From: a virus
Lineage: Duplodnaviria; Caudoviricetes
Direction: 5' to 3' (one strand)
Length of the DNA: 26,750 nt
Virus record (IMG/VR): IMGVR_UViG_3300020188_000043
Coordinates: 1-26,750 of that record
The position numbers and the translations under genes are program-made. This document shows, in pieces, positions 694-18,701 of this stretch. The notes below the pieces were generated by a model. The model saw only the letters and a list, made by a program, of their open reading frames with translations. It made no database searches and was not told where the DNA came from. Each line of letters opens with the position of its first letter. The stretch's first letter is position 1.

Positions 694-842
694 TGGAAAC
701 TATCTTGAAAAAAAATGAACTATGGAATAAATATGTTAATGCATTCAATGCTCAAACACTTTATGAAATAGAGTTACATAGGAAAGAATATGAAAAAGTT
801 ACTAATAGCACTACTGACAATTGTACCAATAATATCTCATAG
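693..842 (+). CDS. small hypothetical protein (49 aa), not in ORF track
   Basis: ATG overlaps the upstream stop (TAATG at 691-695); METILKKNELWNKYVNAF...NNIS*; fills the gap but overlaps the next gene by 53 nt. Confidence 0.4.
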   Translation: METILKKNELWNKYVNAFNAQTLYEIELHRKEYEKVTNSTTDNCTNNIS

Positions 843-1893
843 TGCTATAGGAACTATTAGTGATCAAAAACATGATCCTGCAAGTATTAAAAGAAAAAAT
901 TTAACATTAGAAGGTATTATGGGTACCAATGTAGAGATGTTAGATACTCTACGTACTGGTCAAGGTACTTTAGAAATTACATTTGAAGATTTTACTCAGG
1001 TTCAAATGACAGAATCAGCAAAGTTAATCATTGATGACTTTGTTTACGATCCAAAAAATGCAGATGCAAGTAAACTATCAATCAAAATAGCATCTGGTAC
1101 AGCTCGTTACGCATCAGGTCAAATCGCAAAAAACAATCCACAATCAGTTAAAATTAGAACACCAAGTGCCACAGTATCCGTTCGTGGTACTGATTTTACC
1201 GCCACAGTAGATGAGATAGGTAGTACCACAGTTATTCTATTGCCAAGTTGTCCTCCTGGTTGGTTAGACATTGAACGTGATTGCGTTACAGGTTCTATTG
1301 AAGTTGCTAGTCTAGGCGGTAGTGTCTTAATGAATAAACCATTTGAAGCTACTCGCGTACCTAACCTAGAAGCAAAGCCTACTTCACCAGTCATTGTTGA
1401 TCTAACAGAAGAAATGATTAGACAAATCATTATCGTAGGACCGCCAAAAGAATTTAAAGATGAAGAAATGGATAATACTACAATTAGTCTATTAGATGAC
1501 AATGCCTTAGATCAAAACCTATTAGAAAATGAATTAGACAAAGACCTATCTGAGATATATACAGATAGACTTAGTGAAAACTTGTTAGATAGAGACTTCT
1601 TAAAGAATGTATTAGACATACTAGATCTACAACTAGCTATGTCACAATCAAGAACACTATCCACTTCAGATAAGAATGAATTGCTTCCAGATTTTATTCC
1701 TGACCAAGGTGTAACATATACTACTGATAGCATATCTATTGAACTGTGTATGAATACAACAGGTAGTGATATATCTTGTGTTAACGTACCTACAACGCAA
1801 GAAACAACTATACGTCAAATACAAGGTGCGGTTGATATAACTAACAGAGTTAATAGTGAAGGTACTACCAATATCACTACGAGACAGAACTAA
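790..1893 (+). CDS. secreted FecR-domain protein
   Basis: Signal peptide MKKLLIALLTIVPIISHSA; FecR-family motifs DTLRTG..LEITFED..Q, GTARYASG, VKIRTPSATVSVRGTDF. Confidence 0.8.
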   Translation: MKKLLIALLTIVPIISHSAIGTISDQKHDPASIKRKNLTLEGIMGTNVEMLDTLRTGQGTLEITFEDFTQVQMTESAKLIIDDFVYDPKNADASKLSIKIASGTARYASGQIAKNNPQSVKIRTPSATVSVRGTDFTATVDEIGSTTVILLPSCPPGWLDIERDCVTGSIEVASLGGSVLMNKPFEATRVPNLEAKPTSPVIVDLTEEMIRQIIIVGPPKEFKDEEMDNTTISLLDDNALDQNLLENELDKDLSEIYTDRLSENLLDRDFLKNVLDILDLQLAMSQSRTLSTSDKNELLPDFIPDQGVTYTTDSISIELCMNTTGSDISCVNVPTTQETTIRQIQGAVDITNRVNSEGTTNITTRQN

Positions 1894-3245
1894 TGTATAA
1901 ATCAATATTCATAGCATTCTTAGTGTTAATCGTGTCGCATTTTTTCGCAACAAAAGCCGAAGCTGATTTATACTACGATACCTATCAGGGCACAGGCGCC
2001 TATCCCACATTTCCAGGCAATGGTGGAAGTTTAACTTATCCCACTGCGTTAAGTTCAGGTACTGTCACAGGCATAGATTTCAATTGGAGCAGTGGTGCTG
2101 TGTTAGATTCCGGTCAGACTGATCGAGTTATCGTACACTTCTATGGTTACATTACTATACCAGATACAGGCAGTCAGGACATACAATTCTATCTCTATGC
2201 TGATGATGGCGTTTACATGAAATTGGACAGCACAGTTGTAATTAATGATTGGCAAGAACAAGGCGCTGGAACTTGGAATTACGTTTCAACAGATCAAACA
2301 TTAACAGGTGGGTCTACATATTACCTAGATATGTGGATGTATGAAAACGGTGGAGGTGCCGCAGTTAAGTTATATTGGGACCAAACAGGTTCAGTTGCTA
2401 TTGTTCCAACTTCAGTTTATGCTACAACATACACACCGCCCTCAACATCAACTGTAACTGGATCCAGTCCAGGTATTAGTGGTAGTCAATCAACAGAAAT
2501 TACTTCAGCAAGAACACGAGCCAGCACATACAATTCAAATAGTGACAACTCAGTTTATATAGATCAAGCAGGTGATAATAATACTGTTACTATAACACAA
2601 CAAGGCACAGCAGGCAATCATATAAGAGGTATTGACGGAGCCAGTGCTGGTGTTATCACAGGCGATTCAAATACCATTGAGATTATGCAAGGGTCTCCAA
2701 ATACCACTGATCCCAATTTAATAGAACTATCAGTTGTTGGTAGTACAAATGATATATTATTATATCAGGATAGAGTTAATGGTACAGGTGCAATAGATAC
2801 TGTCGCTACGGGAGGACATACCATAAGTTTAGATTTGTTTGGTGACTTAAATGACATTGATGTTGTACAAAGTAATAATACCGTCAATCAGGGACATTAT
2901 GTAGGCATTGACCTAATAGGTGATAGTAATGTTATAGATGTATTCCAGGCAAACGACTATAGCAAAAAACTATTCTCAACAGTAACAGGTAATTCAAATT
3001 TAATTAATGTAATACAAAAAGGTGATAGCAGTAAGTATGCTGAGATTGAATTAATAGGTAACGGACATTTAGTTGACTTAACACAACAAGGTTTAGGAAA
3101 TCATGATGCTTCAATCTCGTTAACATACGGATCAGCATCCAGTTCAGTAACACTAGATCAAAACAGTTCACTAGACCAATCATACAGTCTGGAACAAACT
3201 TGCTATACTATTGGTGGTTGCTCAGCCACGGTTACTCAGAACTAA
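1893..3245 (+). CDS. secreted PA14-domain plus curlin-like repeat protein
   Basis: Signal peptide ending AEA; PA14 signature (IDFNW, FYGYITIP, FYLYADDGVYM, WMYENGGGA.VKLYW); S/T/P linker; C-terminal repeats such as IDQAGDNNTVTITQ, VTGNSNLINVIQKG. Confidence 0.8.
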   Translation: MYKSIFIAFLVLIVSHFFATKAEADLYYDTYQGTGAYPTFPGNGGSLTYPTALSSGTVTGIDFNWSSGAVLDSGQTDRVIVHFYGYITIPDTGSQDIQFYLYADDGVYMKLDSTVVINDWQEQGAGTWNYVSTDQTLTGGSTYYLDMWMYENGGGAAVKLYWDQTGSVAIVPTSVYATTYTPPSTSTVTGSSPGISGSQSTEITSARTRASTYNSNSDNSVYIDQAGDNNTVTITQQGTAGNHIRGIDGASAGVITGDSNTIEIMQGSPNTTDPNLIELSVVGSTNDILLYQDRVNGTGAIDTVATGGHTISLDLFGDLNDIDVVQSNNTVNQGHYVGIDLIGDSNVIDVFQANDYSKKLFSTVTGNSNLINVIQKGDSSKYAEIELIGNGHLVDLTQQGLGNHDASISLTYGSASSSVTLDQNSSLDQSYSLEQTCYTIGGCSATVTQN

Positions 3246-3255
3246 TAAATAATAA

Positions 3256-5265
3256 ATGAAAAAAATAAATCTATTTACTCCATGGTCAGCACTTATTACT
3301 TTATGTATATTAGTGTTCATTAAAATACAATCTCCAATGTTTGTTGAAAGTATGCAATTGCGGTACTTTGATACACTCATTACATCTGCACCTGAACAAC
3401 AAACCACTATCGCTACTGTTAATATAGACGAAGCTTCGTTAGAAAAATATGGTCAATGGCCATTTAGTCGAGATATCTATGCTGATATCATTAAAGAGTT
3501 ATATGCAAAAGGTGCTGGATTAGTTGTATTCAATGTGCTTATGCCTGAAGCAGATAGATTAGGAAAAGATTCTATACTAGCTAAAACTATGGAAGAATAT
3601 CCAGTGGTACTTCCAAACTTTGGTAGTGATAAAACAAAAAACCATCCACGTAATCCAGGTGCTGTAATGATTGGTGATCCTACTGGTAAGGTCGTAGAAT
3701 ACCCAGGTATCGTTGCATCAATTGAAGCATTAGAAAGTCGTGCATATGGTACAGGTATTGCTACAACATTCCCTGAAGTAGATGGTGTTACTCGAAGAAT
3801 GCCAATGGTTATACGAAGTGGTGATACATTATATCCTAGTATGGGATTAGAAGTGCTAAGAATATTAGCAGGTGATCCTAGTTTTCAAATAAAGTTTAGT
3901 GATATAGGTATTGATAAACTCAGAGTGCCTCAGTTTGGAATACTATCTACTGATCCTATTGGTAGAGTGTGGATTGATTACCAACAAAGACCAGTATCTT
4001 ATAGTTTAACTGAATTACCCGAAACATTTAATAGTAGTATAGTTATTGTAGGAACCACAGCTGCAGGTATTGCCAATCCTATAGCAACTAGTAGAGGTGA
4101 AACTTGGCCACACGAAGTACAAGCATCTGTTATAGCTACATTATCAAGTGGTATCAATATACAACGACCAGATTGGGCTGCTGGAGCCGAACTAATAACA
4201 TTGATACTATTGACTGTTATCTTATTAGTCTTATCTCGATGGGTATATGTAGGATTAGGTACTGGTATATTATTATTAGCTTCAGTGGTACCTATTACAA
4301 GTTATGTATATAGTCAACACTTATTCTTATTTGATGCAACATTGATATTAGGCGGTGGTATACTTATTATGCTTCATGCATATGGAGTTAAGTTCATATC
4401 AGAATTTAAACAGAAACAACAGATTAAAAAACAATTTGGTACCTATCTATCTCCAGCTTTAGTTGAAAAACTACAAAAGAATCCTGAATTATTACGATTG
4501 GGTGGCGAAACAAGAGAACTATCTATTATGTTTACTGATGTTCGTGGCTTTACTACAATATCAGAACATTATGGTGAAGATGTACAAGGTTTAACTAAGA
4601 TCATGAATAGATATATGACAGCCATGACTAAAAAGATACTAGAGAATAATGGTACTATAGATAAATATATCGGTGATGCTCAGATGGCTTTTTGGAATGC
4701 ACCCATTGATGATACTGAACATGCAATAAATGCAGTAAAAACTGGTTTAGAAATGCTTAAGGATTTAGATAAATTTAATGCTGAAATTACTCAAGAAGGT
4801 ATTCCTGCATTTGGAATGGGATTGGGAATCAATACAGGAAATGTTGTGGTAGGCAATATGGGTTCTGATCAGCGGTTTGATTATACATGCCTTGGTGATC
4901 ACGTTAATCTCGCTGCTAGACTTGAAGGCCAATCTAAAAACTATGGTGTTCGAATCATTATAGGTGAGAATACTGCAAATCTAGTAAAATATAAATATAA
5001 TGTAGTTGAGTTAGATACCATTGCAGTAAAAGGTAAATCGATTGGTGTTAAAATATTTACCATTGCAGATATAGATGATCTTGCTTCTCATAAAAAGTTT
5101 CTTCGTGCTTACTATGCAGGAGAATGGAGAGCAGCTTCTTTATTAACAACTAAACTAAAAGAATCTAATCCATTTCTTATTACATACTATGAGAATATGG
5201 CAGAGAGAATGTATTCTGTACCACCTATTAATTGGGATGGTGTTTATAAAGCAACTAGTAAGTAA
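3256..5265 (+). CDS. CHASE2-domain membrane class III adenylate cyclase
   Basis: N-terminal TM; CHASE2 motifs (VNIDEASL..YGQWPFSR, DGVTRRMP); three TMs; cyclase motifs FTDVRGFT, DKYIGDA, GINTG..VVGNMGS, YTCLGDHVNLAARLE. Confidence 0.93.
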   Translation: MKKINLFTPWSALITLCILVFIKIQSPMFVESMQLRYFDTLITSAPEQQTTIATVNIDEASLEKYGQWPFSRDIYADIIKELYAKGAGLVVFNVLMPEADRLGKDSILAKTMEEYPVVLPNFGSDKTKNHPRNPGAVMIGDPTGKVVEYPGIVASIEALESRAYGTGIATTFPEVDGVTRRMPMVIRSGDTLYPSMGLEVLRILAGDPSFQIKFSDIGIDKLRVPQFGILSTDPIGRVWIDYQQRPVSYSLTELPETFNSSIVIVGTTAAGIANPIATSRGETWPHEVQASVIATLSSGINIQRPDWAAGAELITLILLTVILLVLSRWVYVGLGTGILLLASVVPITSYVYSQHLFLFDATLILGGGILIMLHAYGVKFISEFKQKQQIKKQFGTYLSPALVEKLQKNPELLRLGGETRELSIMFTDVRGFTTISEHYGEDVQGLTKIMNRYMTAMTKKILENNGTIDKYIGDAQMAFWNAPIDDTEHAINAVKTGLEMLKDLDKFNAEITQEGIPAFGMGLGINTGNVVVGNMGSDQRFDYTCLGDHVNLAARLEGQSKNYGVRIIIGENTANLVKYKYNVVELDTIAVKGKSIGVKIFTIADIDDLASHKKFLRAYYAGEWRAASLLTTKLKESNPFLITYYENMAERMYSVPPINWDGVYKATSK

Positions 5266-5944: not shown

Positions 5945-5973
5945 TGTACTTTAATTCATATTTAGTGTATAAT
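5945..5973 (+). promoter_or_regulatory. early-type sigma70-like phage promoter
   Basis: TGTACT-N17-TATAAT; one of 8 similar copies. Confidence 0.8.
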
Positions 5974-6003
5974 TAATTATAGATTGATTAAATGGAGAGA
6001 GAA

Positions 6004-6282
6004 ATGACACAATTTATAAAACAAAATTTTGATTATAGTGACGGTTGGTTAACATATAGAACCGACATTAAAACCCGTCCTGAATTTGTTGCTAGATTTA
6101 AATACAACAAATCAGACAAACCTAGCTTCCTTAAATTTCTAATTAAAAACTTCACAGTTGAAGAATATAGAGATTTTACAAACAAACTTAATTTGGCACC
6201 ATTACAAGCCTTGGCTACAAAAGGCTATGTGCCACCAAGCATTAAAAACTTTGATGTTAAATTATTTTTAAGGAGAGCATAA
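6004..6282 (+). CDS. hypothetical phage early protein
   Basis: ORF directly after promoter; ATG 6004 follows GGAGAG (alternative ATG 5992). Confidence 0.7.
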   Translation: MTQFIKQNFDYSDGWLTYRTDIKTRPEFVARFKYNKSDKPSFLKFLIKNFTVEEYRDFTNKLNLAPLQALATKGYVPPSIKNFDVKLFLRRA

Positions 6283-6521
6283 TAGATATTTCAAAATTAA
6301 AACAAGTAGTAATAAGTGGTCCAGAAGATGGTGAAACTATTGCTATGATAGTAGATAACACAGCATACTTAATTCAAACTCACGGTATGAGTGAAGCAAT
6401 ATTTAGAATGAAACGTGAGCATGGTATTCAAACACATGAATGGATGTTGTCATGTGACAAGGCTGTTTTAATTCCAGGCATTTGGGAATATCAAATGGCA
6501 GTTTATAATGGTTTACTTTAA
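6279..6521 (+). CDS. hypothetical protein (about 80 aa), possible ATA start
   Basis: Open frame (I)IDISKLKQVVISGPEDGE...IPGIWEYQMAVYNGLL* behind AAGGAG; fills the gap between the previous stop and the next promoter. Confidence 0.55.
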   Translation: MIDISKLKQVVISGPEDGETIAMIVDNTAYLIQTHGMSEAIFRMKREHGIQTHEWMLSCDKAVLIPGIWEYQMAVYNGLL

Positions 6522-6540
6522 ATATTAATTGTGATATAAT
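6512..6540 (+). promoter_or_regulatory. early-type promoter
   Basis: (G)TTTACT-N17-TATAAT, matching the T4 early -35 GTTTAC. Confidence 0.8.
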
Positions 6541-6546
6541 ACTATT

Positions 6547-6731
6547 ATAGTACAGCTAATTATAGGTAGCTTAAGTCCTATAACCAGAGAGGTCTGGAAC
6601 CGATTCAAGCGGAACGTAACGAGCCTTATACGAACTGGCGGTTTAGGTAGGTAACCTCAAAACGAGCTCAGGAGGAATAGCTAATCTTTCCGACCTGTAG
6701 CAATTACAGGAATACGATTAGCACTTTTTTT
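6547..6731 (+). ncRNA. candidate structured non-coding RNA of unknown family
   Basis: No ORF in the track, GC-richer than flanks, starts right after a promoter, several stems (6560-66/6577-83, 6584-88/6593-97, 6621-24/6666-69, 6680-86/6716-22, 6694-99/6705-10), ends in a T run. Confidence 0.6.
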
Positions 6732-6750
6732 ATTAACTGAAGGATATATT

Positions 6751-7038
6751 ATGGAGATCTATGAAAAAATTGACTTTACCGATAGCGATTTTAAAACCTT
6801 ACTTAGGGAAAAATTACACGAAAATGAAGTCAGCGTTACTTTCACCAAAAGGGATGGTTCTGAGCGAGCAATGCAATGCACGTTATCAGCTGCCAGAATT
6901 CCCGGAGAACAGTTACCTAAAGAATCAGGTACCGGCACTGTTAAAACCTTTTCCGAAGAAGCCATCAGAGTCTTCGACACCGAAAAATCCGAGTGGAGAT
7001 CTTTCAGATACGACTCAATCAACGTAGTTAAATTTTAA
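6751..7038 (+). CDS. WYL_2/DUF2693-like Sm-like SH3-fold protein
   Basis: V.FTKRDGSER.M.CTL and VFD.EK.EWRSFR.D motifs; AAGGA RBS. Confidence 0.75.
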   Translation: MEIYEKIDFTDSDFKTLLREKLHENEVSVTFTKRDGSERAMQCTLSAARIPGEQLPKESGTGTVKTFSEEAIRVFDTEKSEWRSFRYDSINVVKF

Positions 7039-7047
7039 GGATATATT

Positions 7048-7293
7048 ATGCAATTAATTGATCAAGACAAAAAGAAAATCAGAGACGCAATGCAAGAAGC
7101 TTCTAATTCATTAATTAGAATGGAAGCTGAAAGAGACTTAATAAAAACTATTGTTGAGGACTTATTCGAACAATTTAAAATTCCTAAAAAGACTTTGAAT
7201 AGAATGATCAAGGTCTATCACAAACAAAACTTCAATGAAGAGATAGCGAATAATGATGAATTCCAAACTCTTTACGAATCTGTTACAAAATAA
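7048..7293 (+). CDS. dsbA: T4 DsbA-like double-stranded DNA-binding protein
   Basis: EAS.S..R.EAERD.IK, K.LNRM.KVYHKQNF.EE, F..LYE; size and position near rnh. Confidence 0.8.
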   Translation: MQLIDQDKKKIRDAMQEASNSLIRMEAERDLIKTIVEDLFEQFKIPKKTLNRMIKVYHKQNFNEEIANNDEFQTLYESVTK

Positions 7294-7355: not shown

Positions 7356-8471
7356 ATGGCAAAATCATCAGCAAAACACTTAGCTTTTGTAGAAAAAGTT
7401 AATGCAAGATATAAAGGAGGTTCTGCTCCTTTAGTAACTGAAGAAAATTATCGGTTAGAGTTTCCAAGAGCCTTGGCATATCATGCATTAAATAAAGAAA
7501 AGAAACAACTTGCTAAAGCTGTTTATGCATATCTCAAAAAGAATAATACCGAATATGTTTCTGTTATTAAGAAAGTTCCTGATTGGGAACTATTAACTAT
7601 AGGTAAAGTTATATGTGTGATTAATGACGGAAGTTGGATCCAACAAAAAGATTATGTATATTTAGAGACTAAGTTAAATGAACTTTATATCAAATATAAA
7701 AATATCCAGTCAATGAAAGTAGAAGATGAAAATACTGAGCAAAAGCCTAAGGCTCCCGCTGTATCAATCGAACAAAGAATTATCGATTCGGCTAGAGCTC
7801 AGAGTGAAGAAATTGATTATGCGATCGATGAGTATATTAATGAAAAGTCTTCTACTTTCTCCACTAAAGCAATGCTGCTGAAAAATAGTATATCAGGAGC
7901 TGTTGCAAAACGTATAGGTGAATATTATCAAAATCCACTTAACGAAATTAATGAAGCAATTGCAGGTACATGTGATCAGTTATCAGAAGGTTATTCATTC
8001 TTTACTAAAGCAGAATTAAAAAAATTCAGAGACTTCTTACAAAGTATTGTTAATGATTGTAAACAACATGCAGTGATAGTTAAGAAACCTAGAATAGTTA
8101 AACCTAAACCCGCAGGTGTGCTTGTTAAAAAAATGAAGTATATGATAGAGTTTAAAGAATTAAATATGAGATCAATCAATCCTGCTGAGATTGTTAATGC
8201 GGATGTTGCTTATATATATAATACTAAGACAAGAAAGTTATCTCGGTATGAAGCTGATGATCGTGAAACCTTATCAGTAAAAGGTACCACTATCATTAAT
8301 TACTCAGTTAGTAATTCAGACTCTAAAACGATACGTAAACCAGAAGACTTCTTTAAGAAACTTGATTTAGGTAAACGGGCTATGAATAAACTCTTTACTG
8401 ATTTAAAAACTAAACCATCTGAACCAAGTGGTAGAGTAAATACTGATTGTATTATTATAGGAGCATTTTAA
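7356..8471 (+). CDS. conserved hypothetical protein of T4-like phages
   Basis: Long ORF; C-terminal YNTKTRKL..Y, VKGTTI, KTIRKP, GRVN motifs familiar from aquatic T4-like phages. Confidence 0.7.
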   Translation: MAKSSAKHLAFVEKVNARYKGGSAPLVTEENYRLEFPRALAYHALNKEKKQLAKAVYAYLKKNNTEYVSVIKKVPDWELLTIGKVICVINDGSWIQQKDYVYLETKLNELYIKYKNIQSMKVEDENTEQKPKAPAVSIEQRIIDSARAQSEEIDYAIDEYINEKSSTFSTKAMLLKNSISGAVAKRIGEYYQNPLNEINEAIAGTCDQLSEGYSFFTKAELKKFRDFLQSIVNDCKQHAVIVKKPRIVKPKPAGVLVKKMKYMIEFKELNMRSINPAEIVNADVAYIYNTKTRKLSRYEADDRETLSVKGTTIINYSVSNSDSKTIRKPEDFFKKLDLGKRAMNKLFTDLKTKPSEPSGRVNTDCIIIGAF

Positions 8472-8472
8472 A

Positions 8473-9369
8473 ATTATTATTCTAGATTACAGTCAGATTG
8501 CACTAAGTAATATATTACCATTTCAATCTGATCTTAAACGCAATACAGAAGAGCAAACGGTAGACTTAATACGACATGCTACACTTGCTTGTATTAAATC
8601 ATACAAGAAAAAGTATGGTAAAGAGTATGGCGATATAGTTATTGCGTGTGATGGTAAATCTTATTGGCGTAAAGAAGCTTTCCCACATTATAAAGCTTCT
8701 CGTAAAGCTAATAGAGAAAAATCTGATTTAGATTGGAATTTAATATTTACTACTCTAGGTAATTTAAGAGAAGATTTAAAATCGTATTTTCCGTATAAGG
8801 TTATACATGTAGATAGAGCTGAAGCAGATGATGTTATTGCAGCACTAGCTAAGTGGAGTCAAGAGAATGAATTAATACAAGAAGGATTATTTAGTGAACC
8901 TCAAAAAGTATTGATTGTATCTTCTGATAAAGACTTTATACAACTACAAAAATATAAGAATGTTAGACAGTGGAGTCCTATGCAAAAGAAATATGTAGAG
9001 GGTTCACAAAAAGATATTCATGAATATACTATTACCCATACGGTAAAAGGTGATACTGGAGACGGTATACCTAACATATTAAGTAAAGACGATGTGTTTG
9101 TTAGTGGTGATAGACAGAAACCATTCTCAAGTAAACGTCTAACTGAATTTTATGAACACGGAATATTAGCATGTAAAACTGAAGAAGAAAAACGTAATTA
9201 TCAACGCAATCTTATGTTAGTTAATTTTGATTTTATTCCAAAAGATGTTCGATCAGAAATACTTACATCGTTTGAAGAGAATAAACCTAAAGGCGATAAG
9301 ATGATGATCATGAACTATTTAATTAAAAACAAATGTCGATTATTACTCGATGATTTAGAGGAATTTTAA
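8473..9369 (+). CDS. rnh: T4-type RNase H / 5'-3' flap exonuclease; apparent ATT start
   Basis: Frame extends 146 codons upstream of the tracked ORF: (I)IILDYSQI, IACDGKSYWRK..FPHYKASRK, AEADDVIA, SSDKDFIQL, KGDTGDGIPNI. Confidence 0.9.
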   Translation: MIILDYSQIALSNILPFQSDLKRNTEEQTVDLIRHATLACIKSYKKKYGKEYGDIVIACDGKSYWRKEAFPHYKASRKANREKSDLDWNLIFTTLGNLREDLKSYFPYKVIHVDRAEADDVIAALAKWSQENELIQEGLFSEPQKVLIVSSDKDFIQLQKYKNVRQWSPMQKKYVEGSQKDIHEYTITHTVKGDTGDGIPNILSKDDVFVSGDRQKPFSSKRLTEFYEHGILACKTEEEKRNYQRNLMLVNFDFIPKDVRSEILTSFEENKPKGDKMMIMNYLIKNKCRLLLDDLEEF

Positions 9370-17774: not shown

Positions 17775-18701
17775 ATGGATATTAATACACTAAGAAGTAC
17801 CCGCAATAACGATTTCGGTAAGATCTCTTCCGCATTCGATACAATCGCAAACCCCCAAGCAACTACAAAATCATATGTTGATGAACGCATCTGGAAACCA
17901 GAAGCTGATAAAGCTGGTAATGCATCAGCAACAATTAGATTCTTACCTAAGCATCCTGATGATGAACTACCATGGGTAAAAGTATTCTCTCATGGATTTC
18001 AAGGTCCTACAGGTCGTTGGTATATTGAGAACTCTTTAACTACACTTGGAGAAAATGACCCAGTTGGTGAATTAAACTCTAAGTTATGGAATTCAGGTTC
18101 TGAAGCAAACAAAGAAATTGCACGTAAACAAAAACGTCGCTTACACTTCTATTCAAACATATTAGTTGTGTCGGATCCTAAACATCCAGAAAATGAAGGC
18201 AAAGTTATGCTATTCAGATATGGTAAAAAGATCTTTGATAAGATTATGGATAAGGCAAGACCTACATTTGAAGATGAGAAACCAGTGAATGTATTTGATC
18301 TATGGGAAGGCACTGACTTTAAATTAAGAATGAGAAGAGTTGAAGGTTATCCTAACTATGATCAGTCTGTATTTGTTGAACCATCACCAGTAGCTGAATC
18401 AGATGAAAAGATTCTTGAAGTTGTTAATAAACAATATAAACTATCAGAATTTTTAGATCGTTCTAACTTCAAAACTTATGAAGAACTTAAAACTAAACTT
18501 GAAGTAACTTTAAGTGGTGAAGGTATGGATACTTCTGCTAATGATTTAGTAGATGCAATGCCTACTGCTGAACCTAAACAGTTTGCTGAAGTGGCTGAAC
18601 CTCAAGCTAAAGCAGCTCCTGTGGTAAGTGAACCAAGTATAGCAAGTACTGATGACGATGATGTTATGAGTTACTTCCAAAAGATTGCTGACGAAGATTA
18701 A
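17775..18701 (+). CDS. gp32: single-stranded DNA-binding protein gp32
   Basis: DERIWK, IRFLP, HGFQGP.G.WYIEN, GKKIFDKI, FDLWEG.DFKL, acidic tail. Confidence 0.95.
   Translation: MDINTLRSTRNNDFGKISSAFDTIANPQATTKSYVDERIWKPEADKAGNASATIRFLPKHPDDELPWVKVFSHGFQGPTGRWYIENSLTTLGENDPVGELNSKLWNSGSEANKEIARKQKRRLHFYSNILVVSDPKHPENEGKVMLFRYGKKIFDKIMDKARPTFEDEKPVNVFDLWEGTDFKLRMRRVEGYPNYDQSVFVEPSPVAESDEKILEVVNKQYKLSEFLDRSNFKTYEELKTKLEVTLSGEGMDTSANDLVDAMPTAEPKQFAEVAEPQAKAAPVVSEPSIASTDDDDVMSYFQKIADED

Follow-up and report, generated by a model that had tools for sequence, protein, structure and literature searches.

To our knowledge, no function has been assigned to the orphan structured RNAs of phage tRNA clusters, a group that dates back to T4 RNA C and RNA D. 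These two RNAs, as well as GOLLD and ROOL, are structured and non-coding, have no assigned function, and lie in or beside phage tRNA slots: rnaC and rnaD are annotated beside the T4 tRNAs, and GOLLD and ROOL occur near tRNAs and in prophages according to the available part of PMC5737381. The T2/T4 gene 32 autoregulatory pseudoknot has the CPK1 shape, with a first loop of 1-2 bases, a second stem of 6-7 pairs and no base between the stems (PMC11262651, partial text). Theta ribozymes, the minimal HDV-like ribozymes, are small pseudoknotted RNAs found directly 3' of other small RNAs in phage arrays; they have been proposed to process tRNA 3' trailers in phages, and the catalytic C of theta/HDV-like ribozymes stands at the start of J4/2 (PMC10879173, in the portion available). 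Type III antitoxin RNAs are defined by tandem repeats upstream of a terminator (PMC5086642, partial text), and a phage pseudoknot RNA mimics such an RNA antitoxin and neutralises the defence toxin (PMC3475682, partial text). Here, we analysed an element of phage DNA that is a real and rare structured RNA of this known broad kind, and one that has apparently not been described.

The window examined in this study, a stretch of 26,750 nucleotides (IMG/VR record IMGVR_UViG_3300020188_000043), is a piece of a T4-like phage containing gp32, gp59, baseplate, tail-tube, RNase H, PhoH and dsbA genes. Its gp32, the gene for which lies at 17775, is 49-51% identical to the gp32 of Pelagibacter, Methylophilales and Synechococcus phages, and the stretch occurs in 20 of the 22 listed sequencing runs (19 salt marsh and one marine, by label). 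The element (6554-6722) is located between a 58-aa ORF ending at 6521 and a WYL_2 gene (PF10902, formerly DUF2693; 6751-7038, plus strand; E 2e-13), which is preceded by a Shine-Dalgarno-like GAAGGA at 6739-6744 and followed by dsbA (PF11126; 7048-7293, plus strand). A promoter-like site of the early phage type (TTTACTTT...TG-TATAAT) lies on the plus strand at 6512-6540, one of eight copies of this motif in the window (seven on the plus and one on the minus strand), from which transcription would start near 6547. A reading based on the sequence only had described the region as promoter-driven, which holds for the window, but in the homologous locus L213 the matching promoter motif is about 400 bases upstream, with one gene and another RNA motif between it and the element.

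Several features of the remaining phage DNA were also recorded. A perfect 6-1-6 inverted repeat, possibly an operator, spans the predicted start site (6540-6552). The early genes between two promoter copies at 5945-6540 are replaced in a marine strain, the match to which resumes at 6514, and judged from this comparison the segment is a promoter-bounded exchangeable cassette. Genes for FecR, PA14 plus curlin repeat and a CHASE2-adenylate/guanylate cyclase stand in a row at 790-5265 of this lytic-type phage. A 371-aa gene had no match in the protein atlas. In the RNase H region (8471-9369) only a C-terminal ORF, from 8911, was found; the 5' part has no long ORF, so the gene may be broken or misassembled.

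All stems named by the sequence-only reading were found in the sequence, as were both copies of AGCTAAT (6554 and 6679) and the ATTAGC at 6717-6722. The region had also been called free of evident ORFs, and indeed no plus-strand ORF of at least 20 aa overlaps 6540-6745, with one 27-aa ORF on the minus strand. Its GC content (0.42) is higher than that of the upstream flank (0.32), as claimed, but the downstream gene reaches 0.40. By itself, the window element folds no better than shuffled sequences (z = -0.85; 37 of 200 shuffles were as good); since the single-sequence fold is not beyond chance, the case for structure rests on homologs.

Among the 68 WYL_2 loci fetched first, the element was present only in four identical copies. 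A closer WYL_2 clade yielded the carriers L214 and L213/L212; with a pattern scan we obtained two near copies of L214 (L373 and L375), and a scan for a neighboring motif yielded L507, L510 and L516, which gives four lineages in total (the window, L213, L214 and L507 types). The first 74 bases of the element are 80-84% identical to the window, compared with 74-75% for WYL_2 DNA and 67-76% for dsbA DNA; at the sequence level, the element is thus more conserved than the neighboring genes. In the marine strain, the only substitutions in the element, at 6650 and 6715, are both at unpaired sites, and the T run is shorter by one. A model (R1), which was built from the four lineages and covers only the first 83 bases of the element, scored 83-102 bits on its own source lineages, and in 99 viral records only three known carriers exceeded 18 bits; five complete relatives among these records had no element by the same 83-base model. 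Two weak hits of 16-18 bits to T4, obtained with R1 on five cultured phages, were judged to be chance. R1 detected no look-alike in 151 genomes of the order of Pelagibacter, which may not be the host group, and cultured phages gave no real blastn match to either the element or the L507 cassette. Further pattern scans of viral contigs returned only identical copies, known relatives and chance hits, and the 43 loci obtained from a genome scan all lacked the full motif; the highest-scoring one (L578, 19.9 bits) is antisense inside a long gene and was rejected. A structure descriptor of the first three helices matched only the four lineages in the fetched loci (4.0 million bases, both strands counted), and all four matches had the kissing partner (see below) at the expected distance. 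L373, near 2027 on the minus strand, lacks motif A (see below) and the terminal part of the upstream ORF, which consequently reads into the element and stops within its 5' pseudoknot; this arrangement is due to either a deletion or an assembly artefact.

The conserved core (6554-6663, plus strand) was built by hand, and is predicted from the sequence comparison to fold into a compact triple pseudoknot of seven helices. One sequence per lineage (n = 4) was cut into strands by script, and the helices were chosen by hand. Of the 132 cells formed by 33 pairs, 124 are paired, and 12 pairs are changed on both sides, with at least one such pair in each of the seven helices; none of 20000 column shuffles reached either figure, a test that ignores kinship and overstates the evidence because the helices were picked from the same four sequences. 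Eight of the 12 both-sided changes involve L507 alone. The 5' part is a predicted H-type pseudoknot (6554-6583, plus strand) with P1 (6554-6558/6567-6571), P2 (6560-6566/6577-6583), a one-base A loop (6559), no junction base and three pairs changed on both sides. It is followed by the P3 hairpin (6584-6597, plus strand; 6584-6587/6594-6597), the loop of which (6589-6593) would form the second pseudoknot by a loop-to-strand kiss with 6654-6658; three both-sided changes were found here including the kiss, whose four inner pairs have stayed Watson-Crick throughout the four lineages by two independent swaps. The P4 hairpin (6599-6613, plus strand; 6600-6602/6610-6612) has an A-rich loop and two both-sided changes; it is the weakest helix, with 13 of 16 cells paired, and is followed by an invariant ACG (6614-6616). 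The third predicted pseudoknot (6623-6663, plus strand) combines 6623-6626/6645-6648 with 6641-6644/6660-6663, is paired in 32/32 cells, contains 6654-6658 in its loop and has three both-sided changes, all from L507.

Other pairings were considered for the same bases. The 6589-6593/6654-6658 kiss replaced our first choice for the second pseudoknot, 6589-6592/6624-6627, with which seven of 25 pairs were both-sided. This pairing together with 6645-6648/6654-6657, a hairpin of the sequence-only reading, makes an alternative set that can pair in 29 of 32 cells of the four lineages but has mismatches, in L213 and L507, at points of compensation in the main set; on this evidence the core may have two states. 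A pairing 6610-6614/6688-6692 and a likeness to group II domain 5 were both dropped because the homologs break them. The element noticed earlier is real, and that reading is partly confirmed; the predicted fold is a different one. The stem TTATAGG/CCTATAA keeps its pairing, yet it is not a simple stem but half of a pseudoknot with AGCTA/TAGCT. A GAGC/GCTC stem was thought to enclose GCC/GGC, which fails since GAGC (6621-6624) and GCC (6623-6625) overlap and neither can enclose the other; GAGC/GCTC is also broken in L214. AGGT/ACCT is compatible with the sequence, but is outcompeted in the homologs by two long-range pairings.

The 3' part of the element is variable. In the window it forms a hairpin (6680-6722, plus strand) in which 6680-6686/6716-6722 enclose 6694-6699/6705-6710, with two both-sided changes in L214/L373; L213 and L507 have other hairpins in its place. 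A run of seven T (6725-6731, plus strand) follows, in agreement with the sequence-only reading, but a terminator scan does not list the hairpin with this run, and a U run directly 3' of the last hairpin is restricted to the lineage of the window, not being conserved there in the other three. Alternative pairing of the 5' AGCTAAT copy with the 3' strand, which had been proposed as a switch, comes close to the main fold of the window in nested energy (-43.4 vs -43.7 kcal/mol), but it is not conserved: in L214, changes in the 3' strand follow the internal AGCTAAT copy and not the 5' copy, and in L213 and L507 the 5' strand has no 3' partner. Because neither this pairing nor the T run is conserved, an attenuator is unlikely. 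The suggestion that it controls 6751-7293 is further contradicted by sister phages that keep the genes without the element, and by the L507 lineage, in which the element precedes dsbA and there is no WYL_2. No conserved terminator or ribosome-site sequestration coupled to a conserved alternative fold was found in the four lineages, and nothing in our analysis ties the element to cAMP.

The fetched loci contain 79 distinct dsbA proteins, 38 of which entered the tree. In one dsbA clade of 24 members (support 100/98), all 24 have small-RNA modules upstream, namely motif A, hairpin D, tRNA(CAU) or the element, and dsbA is the constant anchor downstream of this cassette; by the patterns used, 48 other dsbA variants have no modules, and seven have too little flank. 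Six of the 24 members, falling into two separate subclades, carry the element. L507 and L510 group within near-identical sisters whose corresponding slot contains tRNA(CAU) (confirmed in 5/5 checked sisters) or nothing. On both sides of the element, L507 has a direct repeat of five bases, of which the empty sites of L490 and L522 contain a single copy. In L507, dsbA is directly downstream of the element; in L213 and L214, the element belongs to a longer unit and begins 1-2 bases past motif A's closing stem. The start codon is 19-45 bases 3' of the element in all lineages, and WYL_2 and the element are each found without the other. Hence, as far as comparison of these loci shows, the element is an exchangeable and dispensable module of a small-RNA cassette upstream of dsbA.

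Motif A is an RNA of about 100 bases, variable in its closing stem and conserved in its core, present in L207-L216 and L480-L570 (e.g. L214:686-772 and L480:1465-1575). It comprises 41 distinct cores in 89 loci (duplicates included), was not found in the window or G051, and has no Rfam match of its own. A self-complementary stretch of at least six bases occurs in one of its hairpins in 33 of 41 cores (8.5 expected from shuffles), and such palindromic loops suggest kissing-loop oligomers. Motif A also fills the intervening segment of two-piece (permuted) tmRNA genes at L480:1381-1792 (by ARAGORN and Rfam) and L512:1249-1657 (by ARAGORN), and ten of the 41 cores were flagged by pattern as such. 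Hairpin D, a conserved stem-loop of about 55 bases, has motif A on one side and tRNA(CAU) or the next gene on the other (L507:1120-1175; also L490, L496, L517, L545 and L548). Motif A is more widespread than the element, and possibly more interesting.

With regard to known families, the earlier expectation of no assignable family was borne out: Rfam gave no hit in the window at the gathering score (best local E 6.6), Rfam 15 had no match on the element in L213, L214 or L507, and no Rfam ribozyme model matched at E up to 10. RF02956 (DUF2693 RNA motif), which is named after the same protein family as the gene downstream of the element, reached only 12 bits (cut-off 81) at 6756-6819, inside the WYL_2 gene, and was absent from the element. 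Tests for tRNA, tmRNA and T4 RNA C/D detected no cloverleaf, tag frame or sequence match in it; the profile gave no match to rnaC or rnaD, and the element differs from T4 RNA C/D, GOLLD and ROOL in size, fold and the lack of a tRNA-like 3' arm. Its predicted 5' pseudoknot shares the CPK1 geometry of the gene 32 pseudoknot in all four lineages (1 base, 6-7 pairs, 0 bases); unlike the latter, it belongs to a larger fold, lies at a distance of 170 bases from a start codon and does not precede gene 32, and CPK1 is a shape, not a function. HDV-like ribozymes form a nested double pseudoknot, whereas in the strand order of the element no hairpin lies between the 5' strand of P2 and the 3' strand of P1; the element also differs from theta ribozymes in habitat and in that J4/2 with its leading C cannot be placed. 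Type III antitoxin RNAs and the phage pseudo-ToxI decoy resemble the window in the order of promoter, pseudoknot RNA, U run and gene, but the terminator is unconserved, and this class was rejected since no tandem repeat array was found in 6300-6900 and the downstream genes are WYL_2 and dsbA instead of a toxin ribonuclease. WYL domains may be linked to self-cleaving ribozymes, a link on which our literature search found no paper. The element is not named in the published motif surveys, including 10.64898/2026.10.21.760802, as far as their available text extends, or found in the accessible part of the PMC10690425 supplementary material, and it may be listed unnamed in the catalogues of PMC10690425, PMC5737381 or 10.64898/2026.10.21.760802.

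Contigs from six RNA-library runs include the element and extend into its flanks. They may derive from DNA; in one run, coverage reaches 29 of 30 bins of the region, the pattern expected of DNA. Such contigs carry no strand, end or level information. Only some of these runs show a higher contig depth at the element than on a neighboring contig, and such depth cannot rank expression; a contig ending near the T run (X20, 6511-6737, depth 3) was set aside as evidence.

Sequence comparison demonstrates the conservation, the both-sided pair changes, the modular gain and loss, and the slot common with a tRNA gene. We tentatively prefer, at somewhat less than even confidence, that the element is a stand-alone early phage RNA which ties up a host protein through its fold, as a decoy, by analogy with the phage RNA mimicking an RNA antitoxin (PMC3475682). 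The stand-alone phage sRNA of the sequence-only reading fits the covarying structure, the cassette slot common with tRNA and the absence of an Rfam match, and no antisense match of more than 10 bases to the element was found elsewhere in the 38 kb of phage DNA examined; an exchangeable, dispensable module with a slot shared with tRNA, a compact fold and no antisense target points to an RNA acting by shape. Such an RNA would be transcribed early from the phage promoter, alone or within a longer precursor, and its 5' pseudoknot and variable 3' hairpin might shield both ends and thereby let it survive trimming. Purines that are invariant and unpaired (6559, 6574-6576, 6588, 6598, 6607-6608, 6614-6616, 6649 and 6651) could pack the core and form a binding surface. 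As a guess, the host partner may be an RNA-binding nuclease or a defence protein; this would account for the patchy occurrence of the element in sister phages. On the other hand, a start codon always follows the element closely and a terminator is lacking at this place in three lineages, which may leave the element within the mRNA.

Two other explanations are live rivals, of which a ribozyme is the main one. A self-cleaving ribozyme of new fold could cut the cassette precursor and free the 3' end of the upstream RNA, as theta ribozymes have been proposed to do for phage tRNA 3' trailers (PMC10879173, partial text). This seems rather unlikely: the 110 bases, three predicted pseudoknots, invariant unpaired bases and sharp 5' edge just past motif A in L213 and L214 would suit it, but no Rfam ribozyme model matches, the strand order is not HDV-like, and in the window the element follows a promoter with nothing upstream to release. 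In its broader form, a new triple-pseudoknot ribozyme class cutting a cassette of tRNAs, tmRNA-associated motif A and other orphan RNAs, as an RNA-only module moving between freshwater and coastal T4-like phages, is equally doubtful. The other rival, a cis-acting 5' cap whose pseudoknots block exonucleases or load ribosomes and so raise the output of the early WYL_2-dsbA operon, ranks behind it as improbable. The element is always the last module before the start codon, with a free ribosome site and no conserved terminator between, and in the window it begins about 7 bases after the predicted start site; but sister phages without it keep the same genes, a tRNA occupies the same slot in sisters, and, as the four loci are one orthologous site, the gene adjacency counts as a single observation.

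A switch for the next gene, i.e. a riboswitch, an attenuator or an operator bound by WYL_2 or DsbA, is quite improbable. Its best two states would be the kiss plus 6623-6626/6645-6648 and the alternative set above; that this set is mostly pairable in the four lineages, that two nested window folds lie within 0.3 kcal/mol and that WYL_2 is described as an Sm-like fold speak for it, against which stand the mismatches of this set in L213 and L507, the lack of a conserved terminator or anti-Shine-Dalgarno, and the occurrence of WYL_2 and the element apart from each other. The patchy spread and the direct repeat in L507 could also indicate a selfish or nearly neutral RNA module that recombines among cassettes with no benefit to the phage, but the fold is under selection, its sequence is more conserved than coding DNA and no mobility gene is nearby, which makes this very improbable. 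That the stems arose by chance in a spacer, as the folding z-score would allow, is largely refuted by the both-sided changes in all seven helices and in the 3' hairpin, by conservation above that of genes and by a descriptor specific to the four lineages, and is scarcely credible.

The element is small (a 110-base core), and its four natural variants are built-in compensatory controls, so its self-cleavage, fold and protein binding are testable within days. If real, a three-pseudoknot fold at such a size would be a new target for structure work. Besides the element, the analysis exposed an exchangeable small-RNA cassette upstream of dsbA, along with motif A and its self-complementary loops.
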